Below the pieces are notes generated by a model. That model saw only the letters and a program-made list of their open reading frames with translations, made no database searches and was not told where the DNA came from. DNA of 64,000 bases. Source: Yuukianura sp. NJ FZ-2021. Lineage: Eukaryota. The position numbers and the translations under genes were made by a program. Position 1 is the stretch's first letter. Each line of letters begins with the position of its first letter. This document shows, piece by piece, positions 1,978 through 35,600 of this stretch. The stretch lies in assembly GCA_046563655.1 (NCBI GenBank), contig CM102290.1, positions 10,168,001 through 10,232,000 on the forward strand. Reading direction: 5' to 3'.

Positions 1978-2367
1978 CCCGCGATGCTTCTCCGTTCCAC
2001 CTTTGGCTCGGCGGAAACACAGAGTACAGCTACATATCCAAATAACACACGTTTGAGCAAATTTTGAAAAAAAAGAGAGTTTCTGAACAGATTTTTTTTT
2101 AAACAAAAGTTGAACAGGGTTTTGAGTTAGTAATTAGGACGTAGCGTTTGAATGAACTTGAAGACTATGAAGAGGGCAGTAGAACTTCAGAAAAGGCAAA
2201 TACTTTTTGGCTTTTTAGAATGTGTTAGTGTCCTGAGCCTTTTCTGTTTTTGAAAAAAATGTTTTTCCCGGATGGTTCTAATCATAGATTATATTTAATT
2301 AAAATCTACAATCTACAATCTCAGAAGGTAACGCTTTCCCTGGAATTTGATTCTGAAATTTGGTTTG

Positions 2368-11903: not shown

Positions 11904-13150
11904 GTAACTTTTGTTTCTAAATCTTGTTATTTGTTTTAGAATCTGATCAAAATTTCTGAGAAACTGGATTGAAAATTTCTTAAAATATTGATTGATGTTT
12001 TTTAAAATCTGGTTTGTGTTTCAAAATTTGTTTTTGGATGAGTTTCAAATCTTTTTATTTTTCCTTAAAGCGTGACCTAACTTTCACCAATTTTTTAGAA
12101 TTGCTTAAAAATTTTAAAAAATCTTGTTGAAAAATTTATTTTGATGTTGAAAAAGGCACTTCCGCTTTTGAAACAGGAAAAGGAAGGGCCAGGTGAGTTT
12201 TTTGAGGCTCATTAATTATTTGGAGGGGGCCACTTTTTGAGGGCATTTGGCAAGCGACAAAACAAGGCTCCTTCCTTTCATGTCTTTGGCTCGAGCCAAA
12301 CAGCCCTTTGTTTTTTATTTTAAAAAAAGAGGAGCCCTTGAGGGCTTCTTTCAAAAAAACGGAAAAAGTTGACTTGACATTGCATTTCCGTCATGACGAG
12401 AGGACTAGGAAGGGGACCCTTGCCTTACCTATTGTAGGTAAAAACGCAAAGGTAGGCTAAGGCCTCATTAATTTTTCAGCAAATGGCTCACGAGAAAACT
12501 GTCTTGTTTTCCTCCACCTTTGAATTTCCCTCTTCTTTTCTTATATTTCCTAGCAAATAAAGGAGAAAGTAAAAAAGTAGCAGAAATTGGAGAGACAAAA
12601 GGAAAAAGCCTCTCGCTCGCTTTTTTCCCAGGGAAATTAAAATGAAAAACGAAACAAAAACTTTCAAAATATTTATTAAACTTTTCCTTCTCAGAAATTA
12701 ACCACTTTCACTTTCGCTCGGATTCTCTAAGAACTTTCAACAAACACACTTTTTTAAAAGTAATTTTTTTTCTCTAAAAAGTTAGAATTTTTAAAACTTT
12801 GAAAACTTTGAGGCTATTTAGATTCAGTTTGTTTTGTCGCCAAACGTATACGCCGCAATTGGGTTGGAGGTCACGACCTAAATAGTTCAAATTTTTTGAA
12901 ATTTTGAGCTGAATAACTTTTTCCTAAATCAAATAGTTTTAGTGCCATTCAAATTATTACAAAAAACTTTCCATTCAACTCCTGAATTTTAATGGTTCAT
13001 TTCCCCTTTTGATCTCATCTGATTGAGTCACATTTCAAACGAGTTTCAAAAAAAGGTTACAAAGTTAGTTTTTCAAATTCTGAACGTTTCTTTCGTTTTT
13101 AGGCAGAAGACTGCTATTTGACACGTCAGTCGTCAAAATCCACGGTCATT

Positions 13151-16100
13151 ATGGATACTTCAAGTGCCCTGAGTCAGAGTCTCGACTCTGTCAATACTGT
13201 CGGTGGAGAAGAAGAGGTAAAAAATTGACACTTTTTAATCATCCCCTCCCCGAATCGAACTCAAAGCAATTGGAATCGATAACCAACGCGAACGTAATAC
13301 CCGCCCTCCGTTTTCACCAATCTTTACGTTTTGGACGTGCCAAATTCAATGTAAATTATGAACTAGTACAAGGTTTGTAATTTTGTGAACTTTTTTTTTT
13401 GCTTTTGTATAAGAAGGAAATTTTTGAATTTTTTGTGAGTGTTCTCCACGCTTTGTTTCACAAATTCAGCTTGAACCGCCCTTCCGTTACTCTCCAAAAA
13501 TCCATGTCCGCTGACCCGTTAATTATTAGCACGAGCCATACAGACTCTGCTGCGCCAATTAAGCAAACCCTCATGCGCAGGAATCAGACCAACACAAAAT
13601 CTACCAACACTCAGTTTGGTTTGTTACGCTTTCGTTTTTCAGCGCATGAGCACTGACCGTACGCACCTCCATGGCCCACATGTCAGAATGAGGGCCGTCA
13701 AAAATATTTGCATGTACGTTATTATATAAAAAAAATCATGTTTTTTTAAACTAATTATTCAATTATTTTCTCCTGCCAATAACGTTAAGACAATATTAAG
13801 GGATTTAAAAAATACTAATATTTTTTTCAATATTTTGACGGTTTTTAGTAAATATTTTGGGCAAGCCTGATTCTCACTTTTGAACTATCCATTGTTATCA
13901 TCATAATAATCAAGTGACAGGTGCGAACTAAAGGGAAGAAGGGGGAAAACTTAAGTGATTGTAAAGAGGATTCGAACTCACGGCGGTAGTCGTCGTCGTT
14001 TTGTTAATTTTTAAATTTTTCATTCAGATTAAGATTTAACCTAACGCAAGCCTATTCAGAACATGATCTATCCAAGAATTTTTTGAAATAGGGCAGGCTT
14101 AGGTGAAACCGTAGAGGTCATTGACCTCTTGTGTATGGTGGGGTCACAGACCCCGACAGGTCAAGCTCCACCATTTCTCCTCAGAATTTCACAGGTTTAA
14201 GTAGAATTTCATTGGTTTTCGTTTGATTTAGATCATGAAGAGATAGGTTATGTTTTGGGTAAGGTTCAGTTTGGTTGATCTTCCGCTGGATTACGTTATT
14301 CTGCTTGGTGTTAGGCTAGATTAGGTTTGAGAATTCCACAAAATGTTGCTAAAGAAGTGGATAGGCCAGTATATTGTCCCAGATCCAGAAATGCTGCAGC
14401 TTCTGACGTCGAAGTTCCCCACCGCAGAAAGCTGCTTTTATCTGTGGAGTTAGTGTGAACAACAGGTAGGATCCAACTGCTCCACTTCATCTTGCAAATG
14501 GACTCCGAGGAACAGATGAGTAACCATGGGAATCCACTCGCACTTCCGCTCACACTTATCTTCCCCCCTTTCACCCCACACTCACCCCCAAACATAACCT
14601 TTGCAGGGGTCAAAGGTCACACCTCCCCCTAACGTGGAGAGCAAATCCCCTCACCTTTAAATCTCTGGACCCCCATTTGTCTCTCGAAAATGTCAGGTCA
14701 ACGTCTCTTTTTTTGCAATCGTGTCTCTTTTCCGCCGCATTTTTGTGCTTACTTGCAAGGTTTGCATGGTTTTTGTACGTATGTGGCCTATTGTGCTCCA
14801 TTTTCCAACAATTTGTGCACAATTTCATGAAAGGTTTTAGGTTTTTGTCTTTTTCTCTTTTTTTCGTGTGTTTTTTTTTCAAAGCCGTTCGTTTGCCTTG
14901 GTCTCTTTTTCGTATTTTTTTGCTGTGGAATGAAAAGGTGAGTTAATTGGCGTTGATGAATTGAAGTCCATTTCCCTCCAGAGTCATTACATTTTTTTTT
15001 GGCTGGATTAGCCATTGACTTTGGCCAAAAGCGAATCATGATGTGATGCATGTCATGATACAAAAACTTTGGACTCAAAAGTTCTGGAAGCCCATGCTAA
15101 AAATTGTCATTTTTTTATTTTTGTGTAAAGTGGTGGAATGGAGAAATGGAAACGGAAGCTCGCAGAAACGTCTCCACCCTTTTCCCTCAAATTCTAATGA
15201 CAACCGCACCCTTTTTTCACGTTTTCAATTTACACACCTACAAAAGATTGACAAAAATGTAACACAAAATTTTATTTTGCAAAATTGGAATACAAATATT
15301 TTGACCAAAATCGAAGTAAAGATTTTTGCACAAAATGGAACAAAGAATACAACATAAAATGGAACAAAGATATTTTGACACAATTGGAAATTTTTATGAA
15401 CTAAACTAGAGAAAAATTGTCCGCAAACATGTTTTTTGTCTGCTAAGAAATAATCGAATTCCTTAAAATTCGCAAAATCGGTTCCAATTTTTGCTCAACT
15501 TGCATTTCTTCTGCCTTCCTTTTTTTTTCTTTGTTTTTTTTTCTCTGCTACCTTCGCAGAAATAAAATTTTATTGAAAAGAAGCGCGTTTTATGTTAGGG
15601 AACTAAAAAAAAGTTTATATGTTGGAAGTGGACTTTGTTCTGTTTAATAATTTCCTCGTAGAGAGTCCGTCTTAATCCAATTTCCTTCCAACGGCTGTCT
15701 TCCAAAACTCGGATTGAAGCGCTGCGCTTTTCCCCCGAAAATTCGGAGTGAGAACCCGGATTCCTGGTTTTCAATTGGACGAAATTTAGTGTTATGGACT
15801 ATGGAGGTCAGAGAGGCACAAGACACCTTGGCTGAATAATTGAGACGCTCCCACTAAGGCTTCGGACGGACACAAAATTCGAATTTTAGGGAGGGGGGAA
15901 AGTTTGGAATTTGGAAGAAAGGAGAGAAATTGGGAGGTTTGGAAGCGTGTGTATTTGGCCGTGCCTGTTGTCTTGTGCTTTTTATTTGTTTGCAAAGGAA
16001 ATTGATTCTCTAAATGGGCATAGATCCTCTCAACTTTCACGTTTCTACATCATCCATTTCACTCACCCACAGACACAAGTCTTTTAGCTTCATACTTTCA

Positions 16101-19100
16101 CACTACTTGATAAAAACACTTTCACTCACTTACTTTTACTCGATTTTCATAATTTGAACCAGGTTGGGCCAGGTTCATAACATACAGTTGAACTTTGAAC
16201 GGCGAAGCAGTTATACGTCAACACCAAAAAGCTAGTTTTTTTTAAATAGTCGTGTTCTGGTGTTGAACGATTATAATCAGCTTTCTCTTGTGAGAAACTG
16301 TAAAATTAAAGGTATTAACTCAAACCTTATAACTTAAAACTCAACTACGGAATTTCTTGTTGTATCTTTTTCGGGCTTTTCCGTTATAGTGGAAATTGAT
16401 TGAGTGTGAAAGAAAGTTATTGATTATAACCGGTAAAATTGTCAATTGAGTGAAAGTGGTGAAAATGGGAAAATGAGGGTGTGGTAAAAAGCGAAGATGA
16501 TGCATAATGTAATACATGGAAATTTTATTGATCCTAAAACTGTTGTTGATAGAGACATGCCCATCGGAAGAGGGAATGAGAGAAAGCAAAGAAAGTTGTG
16601 GTCATCATTCGCAAATCCCCAACAGCCATGTACATATATGTTTGAACTCATTTCAGAGGTCAAAAGGTCGATAACGTTATAGTCGTGAAAATGTCAACGA
16701 CATCTCACAAGTTAAAAAAGCCAAAACTCCCTAATACATATGTTAGATTAGCTCCATTTTCAGAACTCAGCCAAATTTCATACGGTTAGTCACGTTCCCC
16801 TGGTCAGCCGTATTTCGGCGAAGGTAATGTCAGTATTTAGAGAAGATCCAAAATTAAGGGAGGTTTCTGACGTCTGTCCGTCAGCATTGCATTTCAGCGG
16901 TCAGCAACGTTTTAAAGCCAGGTCAATCCTTGCCTTATTGTTAGTCACACTCGTCAGTTATTTGCAGACATTCAGGATTGGTGAGTTATTGACTGTTTGC
17001 GGGAGACAGCGGTGGACAGTGGGTTGCCATGGAAATGGGAAGCACAACAGCAGTCGTTGCCCACGAATAAAACGTAATCAAATATTTGAAACATTTATTG
17101 AGTTTTGTGCAGAGGTGGAGCGTGGTTCCCCTCCATTTGCCACTCGCTGTCCTCTCTGGAGGGGAGTTAGGTTAGGTTTTGGGTTAGAGTTAGGTTTTAG
17201 GTTGCAAACCTAATGGAAACATAACCGAAAACCTAACGGAAAGACTCTGAGACATTCGCATGCTTATGAATATCAAATCCCAAACAACCTTAAACACCCA
17301 TCCCTCCATCGATTTCCACGAGAACTTTTGCAAAAGAAAATACTTTCTTGCCGTTTTATAACTTTAACCTAAGCGGTTATGCTGGGCGAGGTTTTAACCT
17401 AAATTTATGTTAGGCTGTAGGCTGGTAATTGATAAATAAACATAAAATTCTGCATTTCAAGAATTTTGAAATTGGAAAATTTTGGATTTGGACAACTTCG
17501 AATTTAAAAAAAATATGTTCCGTTTTTTTGGGTAAATTTGGCAATTTATACGTTACGAGGAGGAGGAGGAGGGAAAAGTGCAGTTTTTTTCCACGAGGGA
17601 AAGTTTAAATTCATGAGCCCCATTAGAAGGTGCTTGGACTGCATGAATTCGCAAGTAGAAATTTATCACACTCTTCCACTTTTGACTTTATTCCGCCGAA
17701 ATTTAAACTTGAAAAATGGCTTTCAACGAAGGGCAACTTTTAGACGTGTGAGGCCGAATTTGTTTTTCAAAAACCGAGCTTCTTCATAAAAAAGTTAACT
17801 TTTTTACATTAGTTAACCGTAGTTATTCATAATTAGGTGGACCAGCTGCTTTCCTCGTCCTGCGGTGAGACAGAAGTTTAGCGATTGTGTAGAGGTCACT
17901 GATGTCAAGCTCAAATTAGGGGCAAGGGAGCCAGCGATTAGTTGTGCAGAAAACCACATCCTTCTCCGCTGCGGTTTTGTGCACAAAACACAAATTTAGT
18001 CAGAACTTCACTAATCACTGTTTTCTTTCACGCCTAAACCTCAACTTTAAACATTTTTTTCCCGCCAAAACCCAAATTTCAAAATTTCAAATTGACAAAA
18101 AATAAAGCTAAGAAATTTGGTCGGTTTTACGTAAAAGAGTAAAAAATGCACGGCTCTGTGCATATTTTGTTGCGCATGTACTGACTGAGCTAGCCAGACG
18201 TGGCACGACACAAAATTTGTTCAAAATGAAACTCTTGCATGTGACGTAAAGTTTGTTCTCAAAATGTCCAAAAACTAAAAAATGAAAACGTAACAAAAAT
18301 TTCTTGAGAGTTTGTATCGTGGCGCTCAAAATGGCTTGAGAGTGAAAGAACGAAACGTAGCACGCCATTAGATCAAAAAAATTAGGTAAGCAGAATTGAC
18401 GTCAGCAGAAAAGAGGTAAGTCGAAATTAGGTAAGCAATGCATTTAGGTAAGCAATAGATTTAGGTAAGCAGAAAAGAGGTAAGTGGAAAATAGGTAAGC
18501 GGCAGAATTAGGTAAGCAGGATTTACATGTCCCAAAGGCAAAATTTTGATTTCATGTACTATTGCTGATAATTCTGAAAAATTTTTGTGCAGACACTGCA
18601 TGGACCCCTGATAACAACAAAAATTCACCGGAAAAGTAAACATCGATTTCAAAAAATGTTTCCGAGGGTTCCTTCCTATGTTTAGTTAGGGTTTGCTCGT
18701 TACGTTAGGTTAATTTTATAGTTTCCCGCGCCGAAGGCGCGGTGTTAGGTTTTTAAAAGTTCGAAATACTGATTCCGTCTCGAGGGCCCTCGCTAAGGTT
18801 TGATTATGTTATCTAACGATCAAAATTTGAGCAGTAAATAAATAATAACTGTTTTCAAAATTTCGCCTTCGTGACTTACGTAAATCCTGCTTACCTAATT
18901 ATGCCGCTTACCTATTTTCCACTTACCCCTTTTCTGCTTACCTAAATCTATTGCTTACCTAAATGCATTGCTTACCTAATTTCGACTTACCTATTTTCTG
19001 CTGACGTCAATTCTGCTTACCTAATTTTTTTTATCTAATGGCATGGAACCGAACGAAAAGCGTCTATTCCCGTCTTCATCACCGCATTGCGTTATTTGGC

Positions 19101-22100: not shown

Positions 22101-23935
22101 CTTTTGTAGAACACTGAGATGAATTGGAAGGTCATTGACCCTGGGACAGCGTGACCCCTTGAGCAGCAAGGTGTAGGGTAGGCAAGGGTTTTCACTTTTG
22201 TTCACTTGACCCTGTAGGGTCAAACATACACACACTCGACACAGACAAACACTAGAGTTGACCACAATCACGGTTGAGAGCCCAACTGTTAAGCCACACC
22301 CCCTGAGTCCAAGAGTTACTGGCACTTATGCGCAGAACTCTCTGGACAGAACCTAGCCTAACTTCCCTGCCTTGTTCACTTTGTTATTTTCACTTTGACC
22401 TTTGACCTTTGCCGAGTGTGATTCTGACCTTTGATCTTTGTAGCACACGCTGACTCTGGGTGGTCCGACACTGGGCTCTCTCCATGCCACCATTCCGCAC
22501 CTCCTCCCTTCACCATCAATGGCCTCACCCGTCGGCTCTGCTTGCTCTCAAAGCCTCGGAACGCACGCGCCCTGCTCCACGCTATTCGTCGCCAACCTCG
22601 GGGCATTCGTCACGGAACAGGAACTCAAAGACATCTTCGGAAGGTGAGCGCCATCTAGTGTCTTTGCGGGGAGTTTTACGAGAAATGCCACAAGAGGGCT
22701 TTGGTCAAAGCTAAGGAATGTCGAGTCGTGGTCTAGCGTTCGAATCTCAGTTCAATCACACCTAAAAGCCGTTTAATTCTTAATTCTTAGTTTAATTATT
22801 AATCACAGTAGAACTAGTGGGTAATACTTCTATGCTGGTGAATGAAAAAAAAACTTGGGGGTTCGAATCTCGGTTTAGTTTTGCCTACGAATCTGATCAT
22901 TTCTGTACTAATCCTAACAAAATAACTTTCTTTTTGATACAAAGGGACTTAAAACGCAATAATTCCCAGAATTAGGAAAAGAAACTTGCAAGTCTGTGCT
23001 AGAGAGTTCGAATCCAGTGGCTAGTGTCAATATTTTTCAATGTCAATATGTTATTTTGTTTTGCTTGTTCAAACAGAGTTAAGAAAAGGGGAAAGGGGTT
23101 GTTGAGGTTCCCCGGGGTTTATTGATTGAAACGGAAGTGACCACGCCCAAGAAAAAGCCCCACCCAAATTAATCTTCCTGCAGGATGACCTTCGTGACAT
23201 TTGGAAGACGTTAATTAGAGCAAACGATAGAGTCTACAGGGATCCATTACCTAGCGACAATGTGTTTCCGGTGTAAGGCATTTGAATAGTAACGGCGTCA
23301 CTAATCACCGACAAAATTAACGTTAATTTTATATTTCCCAGAAATTCCGAACCTTTAATACCCTTTCTCTATGAATTTCAAATTCTGGCGGCCCAACCCA
23401 TAGCTCAAATTAAAAAAAAGTTTCCCCCAACCTTGAATCCACTACATTGCTATTTAACGTAACAACTAGCACCATCTAGTTAGCGTCTTCAGTTTAGTAA
23501 AACAGATAAAATAAGACAAAAGAATGTAAAATATTATAAAAAGGAATGATAATTTTGAATTGCAGTTTCCCGGGGTTCAGTCGTCTCCGTCTGCACACGA
23601 AAGGTGGCAGTCCCGTGGCCTTTGTTGAGTACATGGACGTGCGGTGCGCCACTCAGGCAATGGCAGCTCTGCAAGGATCGTTTCTGCGCTACTCCGACCG
23701 TGGCGGCATTCGAATCGAGTATGCCAAAACAAAAATGGCGGAAGTGAACGGTTCGAGCGGAAGTAGCGTCATTTTAGCAGCCACTGGAGCTGCCACTCTC
23801 AACGGCCACCACTCTCAGTACGACCATTTGAATCATGTAAATCAGACCCTTTCAACTAGCGTCTCGACTCCCCACCACATCTACCACCACCCACTCGCCC
23901 CCCTTCCTGAACGCCACATTGTGAATGCAGCCTAA
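13151..23935 (+). CDS. cpo: Couch potato (RBPMS/MEC-8 family RNA-binding protein, two RRMs). Exons 13151-13216, 20651-20728, 20881-20934, 21012-21074, 21181-21319, 21402-21547, 22444-22643, 23566-23935
   Basis: [73 protein letters not shown]...|[22 protein letters not shown] closely matches the insect Cpo RRM1. RRM2 reads [11 protein letters not shown]...[30 protein letters not shown]...[15 protein letters not shown]. All junctions are GT-AG and phase-consistent. Confidence 0.96.
18357..19050. mobile_element. ~694-bp non-autonomous TIR element (Mutator/foldback-like) in the long cpo intron
   Basis: ~180-bp inverted arms built of AGGTAAG-containing subrepeats. TSD GAACGAAA at 18348-18355 and 19051-19058. 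Termini GTAGCACGCCATT / AATGGCATGGAACC are shared with the 154-bp MITEs. Confidence 0.9.
19148..19520. repeat. Degenerate repeat with three GTAACC...CATGATGGTTA/GGTTAC units
   Basis: Similar motifs at ~19150-19220, ~19322-19365 and ~19468-19515. Confidence 0.45.
21868..22020. mobile_element. 153-bp MITE, Mutator-like, with 9-bp TSD
   Basis: Flanked by perfect CATCCAAAC direct repeats (21859-21867 and 22021-22029). Imperfect TIRs GGTTCCATGCCATTG / CAATGGCGTGCTTC. Reverse-complement copy at 2368-2521. Confidence 0.88.
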
Positions 23936-26289
23936 GGGCACCTCCACCACGCACCCCCTTCAACCAATCAGGAACCACACAGAGGTCATGCTTCTACTTC
24001 TCGTTTTACATTCCTAACTTCAAGCTTCTCTTCTTCCTATTTTCAAAAAAAAAGTTTTTCAAATTTAAAAAAAGCGGTTCAAAACTCAATCGTAATTTCA
24101 TTCTGTTCTTGTTGCGCAGGATCTAAAAGAAGAAATGGGACAGTCCTGCTAACGGTCAATGACCTTCCTACCCAGCTCCAAAGTTTAACAACGCAAAAAA
24201 ACAATCCCATTTCTTCCTTAGCTTTTGTTTTCAAAAATGGTTCTGACCTGCCATTTTCCCGCTTTTCCTTTGATATGCTTGTCTCAAACTTTTTAAATTT
24301 TCAAAAAAATGTCGCTTGTTCGTTGTAATTTGGTTTCGAATTTTTGAAATTGTCCATTTTGTTTGTTGCATCTGCTAAATGGCTTTGCCTCGTTTTTTGC
24401 TTGTTTGAATTTGGTGCTGCGCATGTGCAGGCTGGAGTTTTTTGTTTCGTTTTGCTTTGAATGTTGCACAATTTCACAGGACTGTAAACTTTTTTCTTTC
24501 CTTGCTTTAATTTCCTGTTCTAAAATTTCCAAAAAGAAAACCGAACTCCAAAAAAACTAATGTTTGATTGTTCACCACACCCTGTTCTCCTTTTGTTTCA
24601 AAATCAAAAATCATTTGTGTGGGAAAACTTGAAATTTTCCTAATTCCTCCACTCATTTGAAGATTCACTGCCTCGTGCACGATGGAACTGGGAATTGGAA
24701 CAATGTAAGATGGATGGAAGCCTAGAGACAGAAAAAATATCTTTTTCACTCCCCACCCCTTCAAAAAATCGTCTCCCGCCCCCACAAAAATCGCCTCAAT
24801 TCTTCTCAAGAAAATCGCTTCTTGTCTGACCACAACCATAACACACACCTTTCAAGTCTCAAAAAATTCGTGTCTCGTGCATTCTCAAATTCTTGTGTAG
24901 GACTTTACGAACATCAAAAAATGAAAATGCAATATGTAAAATCAACATTAACTTATTATATTATATCATGTTTGTTAACCTAAGCTGGATCTTTTATGTT
25001 AATAGTGTCAATTCATTGTTATTAAATATTATATCATTAAAGTATTTAGTCCGAGTAGTAAGAAAACTAGAAACGAGCTTTTTAGTTTGGTAAGATAAGT
25101 GCTTTAGACCAAAGGCTTTGTAATTGTTTGTATAGAATTTGCCCAACTCTGTTACTAATTAATTAAGTTGACCATGTCTGTTACTGAAGGGTGGCTCTAG
25201 ATTAGTATGTTATTTTTCACGCGCGTGTGTAGCTTATTTCCGCGCGTGAATTTATTATCCCACAATTGCCGCGTGTTGAGGATGCTCAAGTCCTCAGTTG
25301 AATCCTTCAAAAGATTCCGTCCAGTTTGAACCAATCTCGTGCGCCAATCAGAGAGTGCACAGAGCGTGCGTCCAAAGGTCGAACATACAAAATTCGCACC
25401 TTTGTGATGAAAAATACAGAAAGACGTTGGCGCTCAAAAACTTTTTTCTTCAAAAAAAAAAACATTCAAAAAGCGCGCCTGTGTCGGCGGAAATCGCAGA
25501 CGTAGGTGCATTTAAGGCGCTGCGCTTAAACAGGCAGTTAACGCAGATAAAAAGGCTCTGGGACTGTGATAACGGATAGAAAAAAAGAGAAAGTTCCGCT
25601 ATGGAATTTTCTTTTTGTTTTAACAGTGTAACGGTTAATAAGTTCTACTAACTAATTGCGATGCCTTAGGAAAAAAAAGGTCAAAGGTCAATGACCTTCC
25701 CGTGACCTTTACTCCGGGGGTCAAGTGATCTTGACCTTGCAACGTGGTGTTTGGAAACCATTTAAGGAATGTTTTAGTGCGCATGCGACTCGAAAAACTT
25801 GCCTCATAAATCCACTTCAAAATTCAAACCCAGTAAACCAATACATATCAAAAAAGTGCTAGTTGGCGAGCGAAAGGGGGAGGAAGCAGGAGTTTTTTGA
25901 ACTTTTTGAAATATGGCGCCTTAGTCAAAAAAAGCATGTTGTCCATGCGCAGAGAGCGAGGACTTCGTCTCAATATTTAGTAAAGTACATTACAACGTGG
26001 TAGGGTTACCAGTTAGGTTTAGATTAGGCTAGAATTATGTTACGGTAAAGCTAATCAATTAAAATCTTGTAAAAAGTCTCACCTTACCAAAAAAAATCAA
26101 GTTTAGTTTTAATTTTTGGCTCCTATCGTCTTGTCTAACTTTAATTAACATGTTAATTAACTTTAGCTCTAATATAATTTAATTCACTTTAAATCGTTAC
26201 GATTTCTTACTTATCAGAATAATTTCAATTCGTAATGGACCTCTCAAAAGTAAAGCAGCAAAGGGCGCTGAAGAAGTGTGAATAAGTTA

Positions 26290-27120
26290 CCGTATTTTCG
26301 CGTCTATAATACGCTCCCGTGTATAGTACGCAGTCTCAAAATTTACTAAAACTGGGGTTGGGCGGGAACAACGCGTTTTAAGCTTCCCAATATAAGTATA
26401 ATTCATTTTTCTGGACACTTTTTTTTTAATTTGAATGTACGCATTTAATTTATACTTTTGACCTTAACTAACGATGGATCCTAAACAAAAGGTCTCACGA
26501 AAATCGTACACCGCTGAGTTCTACCTTAGTTTGTCGTAGAGCTGCATTAATTGGTAACCGTAGCGCTACTCGAGAATTTCCAATAAGCGAAGCAAACGTC
26601 CGGTTTTGGAGAAAAAGTGAGTCGACTTTTTCTAAAACGTAAGCTTAAAACCACGGATGACAGGGACTTCCGTAAGGTACGGGACTCTTTCAAATTTGAA
26701 ATCAACGTTAACCAATTCTCATTCAAACTTATGGAATGTACGCTACACTCCATGCCAGGGCTTTGGCACAACTGAAAGGAATTACCGGAGTTTTGCGCGG
26801 GTGATGGTTTAGTACGACGGATTCATGAAAAGAAACAAGTTTTCAATACGATAAAGGACTGCGGTTGGTCACTTCCGGCGGATTGGTTAGAAAAGCTAGA
26901 GATTTTTCGGGCGTGTACGTGGCCGAAAAAAATGCTCGCGGGTCAATCTCTCCAAAAAGTTACGTTTAATTTAGGTTAGATTAGTTTAGGTTTAGTAGCT
27001 AAACCATCATCACGTTCTACAGTGAACAATTTTCTTTGATTTCAAAATAAAAAAAAAATTCTCGCCAAAATTCCTTGAAATTTCATAGATAATACGCGTA
27101 TTATAGACGGGAAAATACGG
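26290..27120 (+). mobile_element. Internally deleted, decayed pogo-like (Tc1/mariner superfamily) DNA transposon
   Basis: 25-bp TIRs CCGTATTTTC(G/C)CGTCTATAATACGC with TA flanks. Frameshifted remnants MDPKQKVSRKSYTAEF...GNRSATREF.ISEANVRFWRK (Brinker-type DNA-binding domain) and RFMKRNKFSIR..LPADWLEKL (CENP-B HTH). No DDE domain remains. Confidence 0.88.
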
Positions 27121-27523
27121 TAATAAAACCAAACATTCTCGTTTCAAACACTTATTCCAAAAAATTTCAGAAAAAAAATGTCTTGAAAAAGTTTTAGAAT
27201 CATTCAGAAAGAAGACACTCCCACAAAAAAAAAAGATTGAAAGTGGAACTCATTTTTTGTTCATTCAACTCGAAGTTCAAAATCAAATTTCAAGAATTTG
27301 GCAACTTCAAATTAATTTCTCTTGCCATCTCTTGTCTGCTAAGCGTGAGAGTTTTATTCTTGTCATTCGGTTTTTTTCAAATTGAAAAGACTGTTTTTCA
27401 TAAAAAACAAGTTCCATTGGAAGTAACCCAAATGAGCATGGGTGGGCACATAATATACTGTACACACAATGGTAAGTTTCCCTGAAATTATCCTGTCATC
27501 CTATGACAATATGTACAGATCTG

Positions 27524-27620
27524 TAATATATAATTATAACTTATATATAATCAATCATATATATATATATAATCATATCATATATCATATATTATCATAA
27601 TCAATATATATATAATCAAT
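27524..27620. repeat. AT-rich low-complexity/microsatellite (TA, ATCAT)
   Basis: ATATATATATAATCATATCATATATCATAT... Confidence 0.75.
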
Positions 27621-27988
27621 TTGTCATACCAATGTCAATACGTGGGGCAAATGGAGATACAATCTACGCAGAAACTGTCCATCTCCATCATCTCTTCTGT
27701 GTATACTGTATATTACGCAATCAATTATTATAGTATCAATTAATGCATTATACATATTATCTAAAATTATTACATTGCGAGTTTCAGTATAGAAGCAAAT
27801 CCAAACTGGAGGGCGGTGATGAGAAGAGGGTGCCCAAGTGTGTGATTTCCATCTGAAGAACACAATTGAATAAAAATCTCCATAATTGATGGTGTGTCAT
27901 CTAATTTCTTTATATTCTTCTCAAAAATCCATTTTTAAAATTACGAGCACTTTTTCAGAAAAAAAAGTTTTCCATTTTGAACAATACC

Positions 27989-28054
27989 CACGTGGAGATG
28001 TGGAGGAAAAGACGTTCCTATAAATATGAATGGAAGTGGCGTCGTTAGCAGTCA
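27989..28054 (+). promoter_or_regulatory. Putative natalisin core promoter: E-box, TATA and Inr
   Basis: CACGTG at 27989, TATAAAT at 28019-28025 and Inr-like GCAGTC ~30 nt downstream, 150 nt before the ATG. Confidence 0.55.
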
Positions 28055-28198
28055 TTCCAACAGTCGCTTCAAAGAGGATCAACCCTCTGATCTTATCAGT
28101 GGACTTGACCTTTGACTCCTCAATTCATCATTTCAAAATTTAAATCTTTTTGGAAAGAATTTTTTCAAAAAGTTGTCAGTTGAATTAGAATACTCAAC

Positions 28199-28753
28199 AT
28201 GAGGCAGATCCTGGTTATCGTTGTTGCGATTTTTCTCGTGACAGTGATCAGAGACGCTATCGGAGAACAGCTTACCGTCAGAACTCGAAGTGATACGCAA
28301 GACGTGAGCTCATTCACTTTTTTTTTCAAAATTAATAAAAGAATATTTTTGAATTTTTTTTTTGGTTGAAATTTTGAAACCTAGGCTGCTAATAGTGCAT
28401 CACCATTTTGGGCTGCTAGAGGGCGGCGGTCACTGTGTCCATACGACTCAGAACAGGACTGTGATCCACGAAACGGTACGTGTCCGATTTGGTCGAATTG
28501 TGATCCCATGAGCTAAAACTGTACTTTTGGTTTCTGCATAGAAATTGGTGACGAGGAAGCTTTGTCGCAGAGACGTGAAGCCCGGGAAGATCGGCGTGAA
28601 CGTCCTAGTTTGGGAATGGAGGAGAAGCGACTGCGCAGTCTGGGCGCTTTGTTTCAAGCATTTCTTCAAGGTCAACAGCAGCACATCAAGCGGCAGATGA
28701 CCTTTGACCCCAAAGCTGACCCCAACGTACCCTTCTACCCGGCGAGAGGTTGA
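28199..28753 (+). CDS. NTL: Natalisin precursor, 135 aa; exons 28199-28303, 28385-28475, 28542-28753
   Basis: Signal peptide MRQILVIVVAIFLVTVIRDAIG. Peptides ...SDTQD|AANSASPFWAAR-GRR and KR-QMTFDPKADPNVPFYPAR-G* both have the PFW/YxxR-amide natalisin C-terminus. Introns are GT-AG and phase-consistent. Confidence 0.88.
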
Positions 28754-30433
28754 ACCCCTTAAGGTCAACCTAACCTTACACATCCTTACTCATTGAAATT
28801 CCAGTAGTTAGCTTTAAAAGCACAATATACAAAACTTCAAAAAATTGAAAAAAAAAATCAATGCCGAAACCGGTATGAAAAGATACCACACAACTTGTAC
28901 AAATCTAGTTTTCACGAAATCAGACATTTTCTAAATTTTTCTTTGAAAAATCCAAGGAAAATTGAGGAACTTAAATTCTCCAAACGACCTGCAGCCATAC
29001 TGTTGCCACTTGCCACCCGTGGGCTACGATAGCGTTGCCACCTTTGAATTGGTTAGCATAAAAGCAAGCGATGGTGGGTATCAAGTGTGTTTACGTTGCA
29101 GCACCATGCAGCCACTCATAATAGTAGTCACAGCGTCGTTATACACTGTAAGGATACAAGGGTTCATTTTTCCGACCTAAAATCCTAATCCTAACCTTGA
29201 CAACAAAGTTAGAGTAAAATGGAAATTGAACTGGAGTTTCCGAATTGAATTTGGCAAATTTCCAAATTTAAATTTATAGTTTGACTTTTTATTTTTGATC
29301 CTTTGTTTATTTCGAAAAAGTTGCGTTGCTAATAGCAATTTCGATGACTGAACGCAACTGTACGGAACGAATCGGACTAAATGGTACAGCGTAGTTCAGT
29401 TATTAGTTAAAAGAAAAGTTGGAAAACAGACCAACCTGAACTTTAAATTAGTGTACATTTGACCACCAAATCCTGAAATTGTACCCAAAGTTCAATTTCT
29501 TTGATTTTTAATGCAGTTTGGATATGTACAGTGTTGCCGCTTTTCGTAAAAATTTTATTCGGGTGGGTCGCAGCCCGTGCCGACCCAACCTTCTGTCACT
29601 GCGACTTTGTCAATTGTACTAGCATTTTCTTTAAATATTTCGAATTAATGCTTTAGTATTTTTGCAAAACTAGTGACTGTTTTAAAAACTAGACAAAATT
29701 TGGCATCGACTGATATCAGATTCGCCAGCAAATCCGTTTGCCAACACTCGGAAATCAGGGATTGAAAATTAAAACTTGTACCATATCTTCGGCTACGAGG
29801 CCAAGGACGGAAACCCCAACGACGCAACGTTGCGAAATTACGTTTTCTGTTGATTAAAAGAAAGATCCACATCCACAGCTAGGCATTACGATTTCAATCA
29901 AAATATTTTTTGTTAATTTCGTTATTTTCTTATCAGTAATTAATTTCGCAGTAACGTAATAAGTTACGGGAACACACATTCCGCCTAATTTTCCCTGTAA
30001 CTGATTCTTGGTTGAGAAAATGCAATCAACAAAGGATCAAAAATAAAAAGTCAAACTATAAGAATTACATGCGCCATAATCCTTTTTCATTTTTTTTTGC
30101 GAGTGGGCAGACATACAAGGTTTCAGCTGTAGCAAAAGTATATTTGGAACAAAACTTTTTGGCCAAGCACAAGCAGGCTACGAAAGAGTCACTTATTTGA
30201 CACCTTCTACAAAGACTCTTGTTTTCCCAAGGGTCGAAACTTTTGCGTTGGTCTTCAAAGAAACTGGAGGTAGATTTTGAAATTGAATTTTCAAAATTTT
30301 GCAAAGCCAAAACCAAAGGATAGACACAAGGTTGTTTCTTGATGTGATGTTCCATAATTTCAAATCTTAATTACAAATTGGACAAAGTTCTACTGACACA
30401 TACGGTCAGTCCTTGGAGACAATGGCAGTCACC

Positions 30434-30548
30434 TATAAAACCAATGCCGCCACACCATCAGGTCCGCATTCCTTACAGATCCGTGTTTCGCAAAGGTCGT
30501 TGACCTCTACAACGCAGGTCACACATCATACATCTCTAGTACCAAAAC
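30434..30548 (+). promoter_or_regulatory. Putative kinin TATA promoter and first non-coding exon
   Basis: TATAAAA at 30434-30440, Inr-like GCATTC ~30 nt downstream, donor C|GTAAGA at 30548/30549. A second UTR exon is likely at ~30712-30779, and TTGCAG|GTCATG precedes the CDS. Confidence 0.55.
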
Positions 30549-30935
30549 GTAAGAACCTTCTTTTGGAAATTTTAAATTTCGAAATCCTTAAACTGCAAAT
30601 TTGGAAAACCAAACAATTGTTGTTCAAATGTAGTAAAATTCAAATTTTGATTCCTGAATTTCCACCTCGTATTACCTATATCTCACCTATTACCTAATTT
30701 TTATTCTGCAGGTCGTTGACCTCTGCAACTTTGGCCAAATTTCACAACCTTAGTCTTACCTCACCGATTTTCTCATACGGTAGAGAATTTTTATATAAAT
30801 TCAAAATTTCTAAAATTAGAAGAAAAAAACAAATGTAGACGAGACAAAATTTGCGATAGTAAATTTATACGAGAAATGTTTATCGATGACATCGTCTGAC
30901 CTCTGAGGTCTCAATTTGACTTAATTTTGCAGGTC

Positions 30936-31364
30936 ATGGTCGTGTTTTCCTTTTTCGTGTGGCTAGTGATGTCAACTGCTCTGGTGTCTGCTTGTTCCAT
31001 TGGCGCAAACGCCTCGAGCATACTGGGCAAAGAGATCATGGACCCAATGGACAACATGGAAGAGTCACTCATGTCAGCAGAGAGAATGTACGGAGCGGGG
31101 TTTGGACGGGGGATGGCAGTGGACGACTTGCCCACTCCTTACTACGGGGGTGGGGGTGGGAAACGGACGGGGTTTAACAGTTGGGGTGGGAAGAGAGGTG
31201 GGGGTGGGTCTGCAGATGACTTGGCCAAAATATACGGGCTGCTCAGTCGAAGATTCAATTTGGTCAGTGGAACTGGCGGGAAGCGATCCGTGCCAACGGA
31301 AATTCGAACGTCTGTTCCAGCCACACGGCGTGAACCACTCTTCTCTTCTTGGCGGGGAAAGTAA
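30936..31364 (+). CDS. Lk: Kinin (leucokinin) precursor, 142 aa, single coding exon
   Basis: Signal peptide MVVFSFFVWLVMSTALVSA. KR-TGFNSWG-GKR gives a canonical FxxWG-amide kinin; the second copy RR-EPLFSSWR-GK* is a variant. Confidence 0.9.
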   Translation: MVVFSFFVWLVMSTALVSACSIGANASSILGKEIMDPMDNMEESLMSAERMYGAGFGRGMAVDDLPTPYYGGGGGKRTGFNSWGGKRGGGGSADDLAKIYGLLSRRFNLVSGTGGKRSVPTEIRTSVPATRREPLFSSWRGK

Positions 31365-31890
31365 AGTGAAAGTTTACAAATTCAAAATTTTGAAATTGCA
31401 AACGTAAAGAAATATTAACTTGTAAGTAGAAGAACTCTATTCCTGGCGTGCTTAAAATAAAATAGAGAAACGACAATTTGAATTTGAAAAAAATTGACGG
31501 ACTGTTTGAACTTCACAATTTTATTCTACACTACTTCTCACTAACCTATGAAAGTTAGAATGAAATAAGCAATCAGATTTACATTTACCACAATGTAACT
31601 TTTACATGATTGCATTTTCCTGAAGGTAAGTCTACATGATAACACTTTACATTATGTGCATGAGCTTATATTTTAAGTCTGCCGCCAACCCACACTTTAA
31701 CCCTTCCCGTCATCTACATTTTCAAAATGGAGACTCCAGATTTACTACTTAGGTGAATGGGGACTTGTGATTGGCCATTTAAGTGTGCTCAAAAGTGCAA
31801 TTGAGTTAGGTTCACGTAGTTTCTTTCACTAAGTTAGAATAAAATTGAATCGAGGATATTTCCAGTCATGTAGAGGGGTGCAGGAGATCC

Positions 31891-32623
31891 CTAATGAATC
31901 GTTTGGAAACGTCCGGATTCCGAGTACTGTCCGAGTGATCGTTTCCCCCTGAGCCCCATGAACCCCGGGACTGGCTCTCTTTTTTCCCATGATGTAGCTG
32001 ATGACGACGACACTGCGGCTTCCTCTACGTCATCTCGGCCCCTTTTCTCTTCTTCCGAACCCCCCACCACCTCTTTTGACTCCCACCCACTTCCACCCAT
32101 CCCCTGCTCATTTTTCTTGCCTCGCATGCCCAGGAAGCCTACAGGCCCCTTCTTCCCACGCATTCCGTAAAAGTTCGTCGCTGCAGGAGCCTTCTTTCCT
32201 CGCATTCCGTAGAACCCGGCAGATGGCGCTCGTTTCCAGCCCAAGTCGAACTGGCTCGGCATCTGAAACAGAAAATCAATTGTAAGTAATGTAAACTATT
32301 ATAAATACAATATAATAAATAGAAGATGTATACATATAAAATTTCAGAGTAAATTAAGAAAAATTTCAAATTCGAAGAAAGTAAAATGAAAAAAGTTTTG
32401 AGCATAAGTGGGCAAACCACCCTCCGCAATCACCCTATTGTACCTCGTAGAAATCTTGGTAGTTTGGGTCCCCCATGCCCCTCAAGTATGGATTGATGAC
32501 TTTGTTGCCCTGTTGGTGTGCGGGGTCAAGTGCTCCAACTCTTGTGCCCTGCCCTTCCCCCAAAATGAGTAGGAGGGTGGAGATGCAGAGGGTGGACATG
32601 AAGGCAGAATCCGTCGAGAGCAT
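31891..32623 (-). CDS. Tk: Tachykinin-related peptide precursor, ~183 aa; exons 32623-32444 and 32262-31891
   Basis: Signal-like MLSTDSAFMSTLCISTLLLILGEGQG. Four FxGxR-amides are flanked by dibasic sites: APSAGFYGMR, APAATNFYGMR, GPVGFLGMR, EPVPGFMGLR. The intron (YE|MP) is phase 0 GT-AG. Confidence 0.95.
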
Positions 32624-35600
32624 GTCTTCACCCGCCAAAAGACTCCAACTCCTCGTCTGCTGCCTCTGGGAATTGAAAAGAAAGTAGAAAATCAGAAAAA
32701 ACGGAAAAAGTGTGTAAATCCATCTAGTGTTTTATTTTTCATTTCCTCTCTCTCTTTCAATTTCCAATTCTCTCCTTGGCCACTCTAAGATGTTCCCATC
32801 CATCAATAATTAAGTACTGCTCCCACTAAACAAACTGCGACCCAAAGTGACTTGGACATGACGCCATGATCAGTTCCACTTTCGCTGAAAACAGTCTAGT
32901 CTCATCCGCACCTTCGGAGAAAACCAGAGCAGCATTCCCAAACTTAATTACATTTACAACCTTTCGTAACCAGCGTCAGCCACTTTTTCAGCGGCAACTG
33001 CACCAAAATTTAAAAAAGGTATCAATGAAAGTTTAAAACCAAATGCCGAGTAGTTTGAAAGAGTATGCTGGACAGGATAATAAGTAGTGCAAATCATGGC
33101 TTATACTGAGGCAATTTACAACATCGCAAGATAATGAAAATGCGATAGGTTTGTGTTGACCTGATTCTAAGTATTTAGTATAGAAGTAATAGTTGAAGTA
33201 TTTGAGGTATTTCGTTAACTAGTAATTGATTTGTCGTTGATAAGTTATTGCAGCATTCCGTAGTCTGAAGTGTTTAGTATTCCGGTAATTGCCAAGGTTC
33301 CTTGACAACGAAAAGTTAATTTTGTTTAACAGGTTGAGTACTACCACGCTTGTTGACAAAAAAATGAAAAAACAAAACAAAAATTGGTACCAATTCGTAC
33401 TTTAAACTTTAAAAAAAATTGGTTGTATTGTTATGACTACGATGCACTGAATTGAAAAGTTGCAAAATCAAAATGACATGAGGTATTACCCAACCTGCTA
33501 AAGAAAATCAACAATCAACACACCTTATGTAATTGCAGTATTTCTTAAATATAACACAAGTAATTAAACTAATTTAACCATAATTCCAATGTTTCGTAGT
33601 TCAAAGGAAATTGTTGCATCGTTTTGTAATTTTGTGAGTCTGCGAAATTGTAATTTCTGAAAAAGTCTCCGCAATTCTTTTAATTTTTTTCCCCTTCTCG
33701 AGGGAGTTGCAAATTCTACTTCTGACTTTTTCAAAAAGTTGTTTCTGAGTTTTTGTTTGATTGGTAAAATTAGTTGATGAGTGAGATAGAACATGGGGGA
33801 GTCAAACGACAAGTACTAGCAAGGGAATCAAGTTCAAACTTTTTTTCTCGGAAATTGTTCGAAAAGTCAAAATTATCAAGTCAAAATACTTTTTTTGAAA
33901 GTTCGAAGTTTGCCACCACAGGAAGGGTGGGTCGGAGTAACGCGGTTAGCAAAAGAACTAATTAAAGAATACGAAGAATTGACGCAGTTCGTATTTGAAA
34001 AAAGTCCTTATTTCCCACAGTAGTTGAAGTGGAGCGAATTTTAAACTAATTTTTCTCGCTCCACAAATTCACTTTCTCCTTCCCAGATTACCTTAACCTA
34101 ACCACTTTTGACAAAGCCTAACGCGACCTCACAAACCGAACCTTAACAAAACCTAATCATTCTTTTACGTAATGCAATCCAAGCAAACTAACTTTCCAGC
34201 ATTTTTTTAATAAAAATATTCAAGAAGGTTTGAAATTTTTGCGGTAGGAACTAAAGGTTATTAAGGAACTACAGCTTTCAAAAATTAAAAATTTGTGTAA
34301 AACGTTTCTCAATTTTTTTGAAATATTTTGCGAGTGAGAAATGTGTGGTACTGTAAAGGTTAGGGCGGAAGTTGCATTAGCCACTCATTCTTTGTCAACT
34401 TCATATCCTAAACCTGCTTTTCTTTAGAGAAAGTTACCTTTGTGGACCATTAACAAAAGTAAATTGGAGTTGCGTGTTTTGGACACGAGAATATTTTGTT
34501 CCACTTGACATCAACCAATTGAAACACTAGTTCGCGAAAGTGAGACCGATTCAAAATTCATGCCAATTTAAATTTCCCGCTTGTAATGTAGGCATACTTC
34601 TGTCTCACTTTCCCCGCAAACTCCACAAGTGGGCAACTCCGTACAGTAACTACACTTCCAAACAATCCCCTGCCACAATTACGCGTTTTCCTGCAAATAT
34701 TTGCATTTTATCATAAAATATTTCCCGTTAACATTTAAATCTCCCGCTAGCATTTGCAAGTTCTCGCTAACATTTTTGAATTCCACCCAAAACATATCCA
34801 ATTACGATTCCCTCGAGGACCCATGTTTATTTTCCCTCAGAAATAATTGGGCAAAAATAAGAAAACCCAGATTTTTCTTCATCGCAAATTGATCTTCTTC
34901 TTCTCATAGAATAAGAATACCAAAATGTCAGGGGCAAGAGGCGGGGCATATATTTTGCCGTCCAATTAGTACTTAGTAGTTGCAGAAGCGTAACACTAAG
35001 AATGCACGAAAACAACGAAGCACATGATAAGTTTTTTGGAATTCGAATTTTTCCTCACTTGTCGATTTTTTCAAAGAGAAATCGGTTAAGCCTTAATAGT
35101 AAAAAAAAATGGAGCAAGTGAAAATCCATTCCTTCTCGGTTATGATCTTCGTTGTGTGTTTTGCAACTTCAAATTTAAAAATCGCGCAGATCCAGTTGCA
35201 ACATTTTGCTCGTGCTATTTCTCGGTAAGCTATTACCATTAACCTACTTATCTTACACAGTTCTACTCGATGACAAATCGAGTTCTCCCAATTAACTCGC
35301 TCCACCAATGGTATGAAAGGCAAAAAAACAATTCCACATTCAATCCGACTTTTCCGAGAAAAAGGGATTTCGACATTTGACCTTTTGACCTTTCGGTTAA
35401 TAACTCCGTTGAGGTGAAACTTGAATCCAATAGTTAAAAAATACAACGTAACGTTAACTCTCGTTCCATATCCCTGAGGAATTACAAAAGTCAAATCAAT
35501 TCCCTTCCACTTGTAGCCGTGTTTGCTCAGTTCGTCTTCTGGTCGTGAGAATGAATGTGAATATTTGATGTGGCGGTAAAATGGAAATTTCAATTGGAAT

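Follow-up and report, generated by a model that had tools for sequence, protein, structure and literature searches.

Natalisins are known from precursors encoded by a gene separate from tachykinin and ending in F-x-x-x-R-amide, and in the accessible part of a review summarising Jiang et al. 2013 (PMC6880623) the consensus is given as FxxxRamide and natalisin-tachykinin paralogy as the accepted view. Kinins are characterised, in the accessible text of PMC7913504, by the pentapeptide FX1X2WG-amide (X1 = H, N, S, A, Y; X2 = S, P, A, R), and that text also places them in molluscs and annelids and calls kinins and their receptors 'not ancestrally related' to tachykinins; the available part of PMC6880623 likewise holds kinins unrelated to tachykinins. 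A related arrangement is that of the mixed tachykinin/natalisin precursors of the spider mite Tetranychus urticae and of tardigrades, in which, as far as the available portions of PMC6880623 and PMC4730192 go, both peptide types occur at one locus and on one precursor in support of duplication, whereas at the locus considered here each type has its own gene, the two genes lying on opposite strands and flanking a kinin gene. Small neuropeptide genes long kept adjacent are also known from the tandem paralogue pair allatostatin C and CC, which share a scaffold in Ixodes and Habrobracon, but those two are recognisably similar in sequence, in contrast to the three families at this locus, which are unalignable and of which kinin is held to be unrelated.

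In the window, the whole stretch of 64,000 nucleotides that was analysed, three complete prepropeptide genes lie within positions 28199-32623 in the order natalisin (+), kinin (+) and tachykinin (-) (Table 1). Coordinates, frames, splice sites and motifs all bear out the earlier note, which had proposed three complete adjacent genes there. In all three precursors the N-terminus is hydrophobic, and basic sites for cleavage and Gly signals for amidation are present; the introns of the genes are GT..AG. No Pfam family was found in the natalisin, kinin or tachykinin sequences, tachykinin exon included, nor in any of the eight ORFs tested between or flanking the three genes (0 families in 8/8), and Rfam and tRNA searches gave no matches across 26000-35000. 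No recognisable unrelated gene separates the three, the sole intervening element being a polymorphic MITE, and no RYamide gene was found in the window. The earlier note had raised co-regulation as a possible consequence of the adjacency; kinin and tachykinin are convergent and have no common promoter, and from their candidate poly(A) signals the 3' ends of the two genes would fall within about 70 bp of each other.

Table 1. Coordinates and content of the gene parts, the transposon and the candidate signals of the locus
Feature	Position	Strand	Content
Natalisin exon 1	28199-28303	+	Start codon and signal-like hydrophobic stretch, then first part of propeptide (35 codons in all); phase 0; donor GTGAGC
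Natalisin exon 2	28385-28475	+	..AANSASPFWAAR then G-RR (natalisin 1, FWAARamide); phase 1 end, G before donor GTACGT
Natalisin exon 3	28542-28753	+	Spacer, KR-QMTFDPKADPNVPFYPAR-G-stop (natalisin 2, FYPARamide)
MITE, non-autonomous DNA transposon	29275-30058		784 bp, natalisin-kinin gap; 38-nt terminal inverted repeats
Kinin precursor CDS	30936-31364	+	142 aa, one coding exon; KR-TGFNSWG-GKR and RR-EPLFSSWR-GK-stop
AATAAA, kinin gene	31456-31461	+	Candidate poly(A) signal, presumed; 92 nt past stop
AATAAA, tachykinin gene	31520-31525	-	Candidate poly(A) signal, presumed
Tachykinin exon 2	31891-32262	-	Four FxGxR-G-K[KR] copies, stop
Tachykinin exon 1	32444-32623	-	Start codon and signal-like hydrophobic stretch, then propeptide (60 codons in all); phase 0; donor GTACAA

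The spliced natalisin coding sequence is 408 nt long and encodes 135 aa free of internal stops, with introns of 81 and 66 nt, both GT..AG and in phases 0 and 1, and with a hydrophobic N-terminus (top 12-residue Kyte-Doolittle mean 3.5). Its peptides have the FxxxR-amide endings of natalisins, lacking the Gly found in tachykinins, on a three-exon gene distinct from tachykinin, and the pattern PF...RG([KR][KR] or stop) occurs twice in the window against 0.097 expected (300 order-2 Markov simulations, six frames). This motif, and an orthologue of matching exon phases on a metagenome contig (L002, described below), suggest that the gene is a natalisin. Collembola and Tribolium are also reported to have two copies, whereas the available text of PMC6880623 gives 5-15 copies for insect natalisin precursors. 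Unlike known precursors, that of the window is very short and its second peptide closes the protein at G-stop.

The 181-nt intron of the tachykinin gene is in phase 0 with acceptor TTTCAG, and the protein of 183 aa has a hydrophobic TLCISTLLLILG within its first 25 residues (top 12-residue Kyte-Doolittle mean 2.3). The four peptides APSAGFYGMR, APAATNFYGMR, GPVGFLGMR and EPVPGFMGLR, at 32214-31942 (-), are each followed by G and KK or KR and so have the FX1GX2R-Gly-dibasic form; F.G.RG[KR][KR] occurs four times in the window against a mean of 0.017, and none of 300 order-2 Markov simulations reaches four (six frames). Matches at E<=1e-3 comprise 37 of 83 candidates, include tachykinin-named proteins of Cimex, Rhynocoris, Penaeus and Callosobruchus, and in three cases carry a precomputed PF08262. 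The TRP/TK precursors of Cimex lectularius and Rhynocoris fuscipes (HMMER E 8e-22 to 3e-20) likewise hold multiple FxGxR-G-dibasic copies, although the window gene differs from the named precursors in having only four. That four-peptide layout recurs in five of six aligned relatives (P0003 and P0005-P0008), with P0011 being without the fourth.

The kinin gene, also with a hydrophobic N-terminus (top 12-residue Kyte-Doolittle mean 2.6), carries KR-TGFNSWG-GKR at 31173-31196, which fits the defining pentapeptide of kinin/leucokinin precursors, yet this is its single canonical copy. The C-terminal copy FSSWR-G-K ends in W-R-amide and is atypical, falling outside the FX1X2WG-amide definition; the earlier note had recognised the FNSWGamide and overlooked this FSSWRamide of the same gene. 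The pattern F..WGG[KR][KR] has two matches in the window against 0.017 expected (300 order-2 Markov simulations, six frames), one being the kinin gene and the other, at 3891-3868, lying in a G-rich stretch and taken as chance. A full HMMER scan with the kinin precursor returned ten proteins at E<=1e-3. P0158 matches it end to end (E 9e-11) with an identical two-peptide layout, and the P0163 cluster (E 5e-6) contains a 'Kinin' of Apolygus lucorum and a 'leucokinin-like peptide precursor' of Lygus hesperus; scores to such named precursors reflect mostly the repeated motif, the whole-length match being to the unnamed P0158. The FSSWRamide variant is kept in P0160 and P0165, and appears as FSSWGamide in P0158. 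That the gene might be a diverged natalisin or tachykinin duplicate which has converged on an FxxWG ending, and not a kinin orthologue, is suggested by its position between these two genes and by the variable last residue of its copies, G and R in the window and Q and S in L002 (FNPWQa and FQPWSa). This is a highly improbable account given the HMMER matches to multi-copy FNSWG-GKR precursors named kinin or leucokinin-like by their sources, an FNSWG core consistent with the kinin definition, and, in wasps and cricket, genes annotated as leucokinin that also lie beside natalisin.

Details of the assembly bear directly on whether the three genes are neighbours at all. The MITE, a high-copy element with terminal inverted repeats that are 97% complementary and with TA..TA ends, lies in a stretch of raised depth (29106-30275), and short-read contigs of runs X1, X2 and X4 break at this repeat between natalisin and kinin, as they might if the genes were not contiguous in the real genome and had been joined artefactually. 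However, a Logan contig of 12,579 nt from run X3, which may be the sample behind the window assembly, covers 27114-29274 and 30059-33323 and joins all three genes in a MITE-less haplotype. The joint of 29274 to 30059 without the MITE is present in 4/4 runs (X1-X4), among them X4 from a second study, where parts of all three genes are found on short contigs only; and L002 independently has the same gene arrangement. Artefactual joining is thus scarcely credible, and the possibility of misassembly raised in the earlier note is answered by the single 12.6-kb contig from X3.

Contig L002 carries tachykinin (+) at about 417-2266, a kinin-like gene (-) at about 5406-5029 and natalisin (-) at 7846-6989, a gene order and orientation identical to that of the window, with identities of about 53% for tachykinin and about 25% for kinin; by its sequence it is from a divergent organism. 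The L002 natalisin has three exons in phases 0 and 1, a G before its GTAC donor as in the window, and FWAAR twice, the first peptide being followed by G-RR and the second ending in G-stop. At a second metagenome locus, L004, the 10 kb upstream and the 7.6 kb downstream of tachykinin are free of kinin and natalisin motifs, and one of the two metagenome loci above 5 kb thus shows the cluster. Published tables supply pairs. In Gryllus, kinin (Scaffold34:8543640-8544062) and natalisin (Scaffold34:8647546-8652008) are 103 kb apart on the same strand (StringTie loci 7466 and 7468). Leucokinin and natalisin are consecutive in Aphidius (KAF7987704.1 and KAF7987703.1) and are consecutive gene models in Habrobracon (Hheb035510.1 and Hheb035520.1), where 227 gene models separate the two from tachykinin (Hheb033240.1); physical adjacency is here read from consecutive accessions or gene numbers, and as both are braconid wasps they are not independent cases. 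In Ixodes ISE6, kinin and TRP are linked at the level of the scaffold, both being on PKSA02005591.1, and natalisin is on a different one. Tachykinin was not found in the Gryllus and Aphidius tables. The authors of these tables pass over the linkage without comment.

Among the loci examined all three genes are together in the window and L002 only, with pairs elsewhere, and the linkage is not universal among arthropods. The L002 order and the wasp, cricket and tick tables suggest that the natalisin-kinin-tachykinin neighbourhood is old and not due to chance. A recent chance rearrangement in the window lineage, of no wider meaning, would fit the absence of kinin and natalisin near tachykinin in L004, the separate scaffold of tick natalisin and the distant Habrobracon tachykinin, but it is already disfavoured and very unlikely, since order and orientation are kept in L002 despite the low identities, and pairwise linkages occur independently in Hymenoptera, Orthoptera and Ixodida. 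The linkage group seems to date back to early pancrustaceans at the latest, and probably to the arthropod ancestor. The L002 order and the pairs in braconids, cricket and tick argue that the linkage is not private to this genome. The earlier note knew of no account of the three-gene linkage, and full-text literature searches likewise found no description of it.

Quite how the neighbours are related is a separate issue, as adjacency alone is no proof of common descent. The adjacency of natalisin and tachykinin fits their accepted paralogy, and each has a phase-0 intron after a signal/pro-region exon, kinin being without a coding intron. BLASTP among the three precursors gave E 2.1 for kinin against tachykinin, E 4.0 for natalisin against tachykinin and nothing for natalisin against kinin. 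Of what would mark tandem paralogues, then, adjacency is found and so is conservation, L004 excepted, and detectable homology between the members is not. The claim of the earlier note that the cluster is 'direct genomic evidence' of tandem duplication does not hold up, there being no precursor similarity beyond chance and no coding intron in kinin. Its premise of a recognised group of related receptors was stronger than can be confirmed, because PMC7913504, in its accessible part, separates kinins and their receptors from tachykinins.

It is nonetheless possible, though doubtful, that kinin, natalisin and tachykinin are all true paralogues that arose by tandem duplication of one ancestral amidated-peptide gene, with the cluster as the remnant of that array, as the earlier note read it. 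Consistent with this are a three-gene adjacency kept in two divergent organisms, the place of kinin between two accepted paralogues, the kinin-natalisin and kinin-tachykinin linkages of wasps, cricket and tick, the likeness of the three peptide types (short, amidated and with a Phe-first core), and a conserved Arg-amide copy, FSSWRa, in the kinin precursors of the window, P0160 and P0165, as in natalisins and tachykinins. Set against it are the undetectable similarity among the precursors of the three families, a kinin gene with no coding intron to compare, and the denial of kinin-tachykinin ancestry in the available texts of PMC7913504 and PMC6880623. Further, the kinins of molluscs and annelids would require the duplication to predate arthropods. 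In its fullest form, a single ancient tandem array from before the arthropod radiation, with kinin possibly reaching back to the protostome ancestor, would have left three survivors nearly intact in a compact genome and FSSWRa as a relic, a scheme which is at present tentative and rather unlikely.

The picture that probably holds is one of three separate, functional-looking secretory prepropeptide genes of an arthropod that form the compact survivor of an old linkage group, with kinin as a long-standing neighbour. As is established for neuropeptide biochemistry, an N-terminal signal peptide would route each precursor into the secretory pathway, prohormone convertases would cut at the basic sites, a carboxypeptidase would trim the products and the C-terminal Gly would be amidated. 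The predicted products are FWAARa and FYPARa, TGFNSWGa with the FSSWRa variant, and four FxGxRa tachykinin-related peptides, which may act on rhodopsin-type GPCRs. The natalisin/tachykinin part of the cluster would match the accepted origin of natalisin by tachykinin gene duplication; for kinin the data point to an old neighbour and do not demonstrate an ancestor shared with the other two.

To our knowledge the relationships of short neuropeptide families are not resolvable by aligning peptides of 5-10 residues and currently depend on receptor trees. Physical clustering, where it is conserved, offers an independent and countable line of evidence on such relationships, and the recurrence of this neighbourhood in the springtail-like or crustacean-like genome of the window, a metagenome relative, wasps, cricket and tick makes the old idea that kinin is tachykinin-like testable again. 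At 3.6 kb once the MITE is left out, the locus is very compact and suits the study of how neighbouring neuropeptide genes are regulated, and the FSSWRamide variant is a ready ligand with which cross-talk among the receptors for kinin, natalisin and tachykinin could be tested. The question of a shared origin for the natalisin, kinin and tachykinin families is thereby reopened, and descent from one array, if true, would overturn the textbook view of kinins as unrelated to tachykinins.

The models of the natalisin, kinin and tachykinin genes were drawn from stop-to-stop frames and the sequence and then checked by script, and three complete predicted genes lie where the earlier note had placed them, its interval having the natalisin ATG and the tachykinin ATG as its exact ends. 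Natalisin has two introns of 81 and 66 nt, both GT..AG and in phases 0 and 1, and its spliced frame of 408 nt, with zero internal stops, begins with a strongly hydrophobic N-terminus (VIVVAIFLVTVI) and carries one peptide ending ..AANSASPFWAAR before G-RR and a second at the extreme C-terminal end (KR-QMTFDPKADPNVPFYPAR-G-stop). In the kinin frame a hydrophobic N-terminus precedes KR-TGFNSWG-GKR and RR-EPLFSSWR-GK-stop, and the tachykinin gene, with one phase-0 GT..AG intron of 181 nt, encodes in its second exon APSAGFYGMR, APAATNFYGMR, GPVGFLGMR and EPVPGFMGLR, each followed by Gly and then KK or KR. Neuropeptide precursors pass through signal peptidase, convertases, carboxypeptidase and amidation, and from this established biochemistry the precursors predicted here would be processed in the same way. 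The peptide copy numbers (tachykinin four, natalisin two, kinin two) resemble those tabulated for Collembola; Daphnia is said to be without kinin.

Features of the window and of L002, a metagenome-contig locus from a divergent organism
Feature	Position	Strand	Description
Natalisin exons	28199-28303, 28385-28475, 28542-28753	+	predicted gene model
Kinin ORF	30936-31364	+	predicted gene model; single, 142 codons
Tachykinin exon 1	32623-32444	-	predicted gene model
Tachykinin exon 2	32262-31891	-	predicted gene model
MITE (non-autonomous DNA transposon)	29275-30058		784 bp, between natalisin and kinin; polymorphic; terminal inverted repeats
Neuropeptide F (NPY-family) precursor exon	1699-2133	-	PF00159, 39.2 bits vs cut-off 28.7
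Large KMT2C / 'lost PHDs of trr'-like gene	46000-64000	+	PHD fingers, zf-HC5HC2H domains
L002 locus	12.2 kb of 14.7-kb contig		tachykinin, kinin-like, natalisin
L002 tachykinin	exon 1 ~417-584, exon 2 1889-2266	+	
L002 kinin-like gene	~5406-5029	-	single exon; hydrophobic N-terminus, FNPWQ-GKR, FQPWS-GKR
L002 natalisin exons	7846-7766, 7450-7327, 7212-6989	-	

That the amidated motifs occur by chance was weighed against 300 order-2 Markov simulations of the window read in six frames. The tachykinin pattern F.G.RG[KR][KR] was observed four times against a mean of 0.017, the strict kinin pattern F..WGG[KR][KR] twice against 0.017, and the natalisin pattern PF...RG with a dibasic site or stop twice against 0.097. 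The second strict kinin match, FGWWGGRR at 3891-3868 (-), was itself judged to be chance, lying in a 27-codon G-rich frame with neither a start nor a hydrophobic or signal segment. Pfam returned zero families for the natalisin exon, for either tachykinin exon and for the kinin ORFs of both the window and L002. For the tachykinin exon 37 of 83 candidates matched at E<=1e-3, some of them named as tachykinin(s) (Cimex, Rhynocoris, Penaeus, Callosobruchus), and among six unnamed relatives that were aligned the four-peptide layout is present in five, the protein P0011 being without the fourth peptide. The putative natalisin assignment rests on the FxxxRamide consensus of that family (PMC6880623) and on the L002 orthologue, which was found by position; the Atlas neighbours of natalisin exon 3 were bacterial clusters with a top score of 0.78 and are meaningless.

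For kinin a word-indexed search gave none of 19 candidates at E<=1e-3, and an exhaustive HMMER scan did find relatives, with ten matches at that threshold. One of these, P0158 (E 9e-11), aligns over its full length and has the same two-peptide plan, also seen in P0160 and P0165, and the P0163 cluster (E 5e-6) includes a 'Kinin' of Apolygus lucorum and a 'leucokinin-like peptide precursor' of Lygus hesperus. The kinin alignment (A2) has invariant F, N, W, G, K and R in the first peptide and invariant F, W and G in the last, and the first copy, TGFNSWG, matches the FX1X2WGamide definition in the accessible text of PMC7913504. The last copy (31341-31364, +) reads PLFSSWR-G; P0158 has a canonical FSSWG-G here, and since FSSWR-G is common to the window and the unnamed P0160 and P0165, the predicted Trp-Arg-amide ending is therefore a conserved non-canonical variant and not a one-off mutation. 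By Atlas the closest clusters are mixed neuropeptide precursors (DH31, FMRFamide-related, PBAN, allatostatin, protachykinin) at 0.89-0.91; the recognition value of 1912 falls short of the 2300 mark, so that the result serves only as a lead. The sequence at 30921-30938 (+), ttaattttgcag, makes a good splice acceptor 3 nt upstream of the kinin ATG and in frame with it; most simply it would mark a 5'-UTR intron, and splicing to it from a phase-0 donor, for example the one closing natalisin exon 1, would likewise keep the frame open.

No recognisable gene separates the three, as the earlier note had it: neither Rfam families nor tRNAs were found between 26000 and 35000, and the ORFs between or beside the genes carry no Pfam family. 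The window is AT-rich eukaryotic DNA (GC ~0.39) with very short introns. Natalisin and kinin are arranged in tandem, and kinin and tachykinin are convergent with their stop codons 526 bp apart, so that these last two cannot share a promoter; AATAAA occurs at 31456 (+) and 31525 (-), and if these candidate signals are used the 3' ends of the two genes would fall within ~70 bp. Between natalisin and kinin sits a MITE with 38-nt terminal inverted repeats (97% complementary), TA at each end, raised depth and an internal sequence that is multi-copy in the genome. The five runs listed for the stretch include DNA runs only, which speaks neither for nor against expression. In all four that were compared (X1-X4, the last from a second study) contigs lacking the MITE share the same joint, giving a cluster span of 3.6 kb. 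One such Logan contig from X3, 12,579 nt long and from a slightly divergent haplotype, covers 27114-29274 and 30059-33323 and so carries all three genes and no 29275-30058.

Beyond the cluster, a very high-copy repeat at 33084-33551 reaches a summed contig depth of 20,000-53,000 against ~180 in its flanks, with many loose contig ends and joints at 33292-33293, 33476 and 33511. A search for RYamide/luqin found neither an RYG nor an RFG precursor close to the three genes. The neuropeptide F exon has a hydrophobic N-terminus and then ..PQRPRVFTSPEELKTYLGALARYYATVSR.., its RF-amide end being probably completed by a downstream exon, and thus a fourth neuropeptide gene lies ~26 kb from the cluster. 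In the frame at 13084-13377 (+) an RFamide-like ending occurs together with a monobasic site, and this could be an sNPF/FMRFamide-type exon, or chance. An ORF at 23540-23935 (+) gives a weak RRM match (PF00076, 18.7 bits, under the 20.7 cut-off), and we take it that this may be a gene of RBPMS / couch-potato type. Named matches to the PHD ORF of the KMT2C-like gene are led by the ostracod Cyprideis torosa at 75%, with Orchesella and Saccoglossus at 69%, and the ORF is too conserved for taxonomic placement.

Scanning of metagenome contigs with the tachykinin alignment gave 248 pattern matches and ten confirmed loci, only two of them longer than 5 kb. In one, L002, gene order and orientation are exactly those of the window, and the natalisin architecture is identical: the introns are in phases 0 and 1, exon 2 holds FWAAR-G-RR and is followed by a G|GTAC donor, and the protein closes on FWAAR-G-stop. 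Identity to the window is only 53% for tachykinin and ~25% for the kinin proteins. The other, L004, has a tachykinin gene at 9977-10393 (+) that has lost its fourth peptide as in P0011, shows no kinin or natalisin motif from 10 kb upstream to 7.6 kb downstream of it, and in their place has a TANC-like ankyrin / AAA-lid gene at 13719-17669 (-). The cluster is therefore kept in one of two informative loci, the remaining eight (1.0-4.3 kb) having no kinin or natalisin motif and being too short to be informative. When every L002 and L004 ORF of at least 30 aa was compared with the window by tblastn, tachykinin was the sole match, and there is therefore no flanking-gene synteny.

A rearrangement private to this lineage is very unlikely, subject to two reservations on the tick scaffold and on the full trio, because pairwise linkage recurs in published cricket, wasp and tick tables. 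In Gryllus bimaculatus kinin (Scaffold34:8543640-8544062, -) and natalisin (Scaffold34:8647546-8652008, -) are StringTie loci 7466 and 7468, with tachykinin 'not identified' (PMC9960350, accessible part). The accessible tables for two wasps, which are not independent cases, list leucokinin KAF7987704.1 and natalisin KAF7987703.1 in Aphidius gifuensis, where tachykinin is reported missing (PMC8397052), and leucokinin Hheb035510.1, natalisin Hheb035520.1 and tachykinin Hheb033240.1 in Habrobracon hebetor (PMC7596734); we infer physical adjacency of leucokinin and natalisin from their consecutive accessions or gene numbers. For Ixodes scapularis ISE6 the available part of PMC7828734 puts kinin and TRP on PKSA02005591.1 and natalisin on PKSA02002188.1, showing only a shared scaffold and not proximity. 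All three genes were seen together in the window and L002 only. The accessible portions of these four papers leave the linkage uncommented, and those of PMC6585902, PMC7570057, PMC4237046, PMC13302288, PMC7818427 and PMC4730192 hold no word on it. The one table located for the Drosophila genes CG34388 and CG13480 gives no map positions, and text matches to the peptide strings were noise. The three-gene linkage, which the earlier note did not know as described, likewise has no description in the full-text literature covered, mostly without subscription journals, and an earlier mention elsewhere is possible. Each gene adds a new member to a known family; linked neuropeptide genes are themselves a known phenomenon, of which this conserved cluster of three families appears to be a variant not described before.

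Natalisin is regarded as the sister of tachykinin and of duplication origin (PMC6880623), mixed natalisin/tachykinin precursors being reported, in the source text available, from spider mite and tardigrades, and the proximity of the two genes here fits that origin. Two reviews, in their accessible parts, hold kinins to be neither homologous nor ancestrally related to tachykinins (PMC7913504, PMC6880623). Pairwise comparison of the three precursors found no similarity beyond chance, and therefore common descent of kinin with natalisin and tachykinin is entertained here as a tentative proposal, and a rather doubtful one. The interpretation first offered is partly supported: the linkage stands as real and old, from L002 and the published tables, and the homology of all three families and their co-regulation stay hypothetical. 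What the evidence supports is an old, conserved linkage of kinin, natalisin and tachykinin, in which kinin is the surprise, being a gene between two accepted paralogues and linked to either one across distant arthropods.
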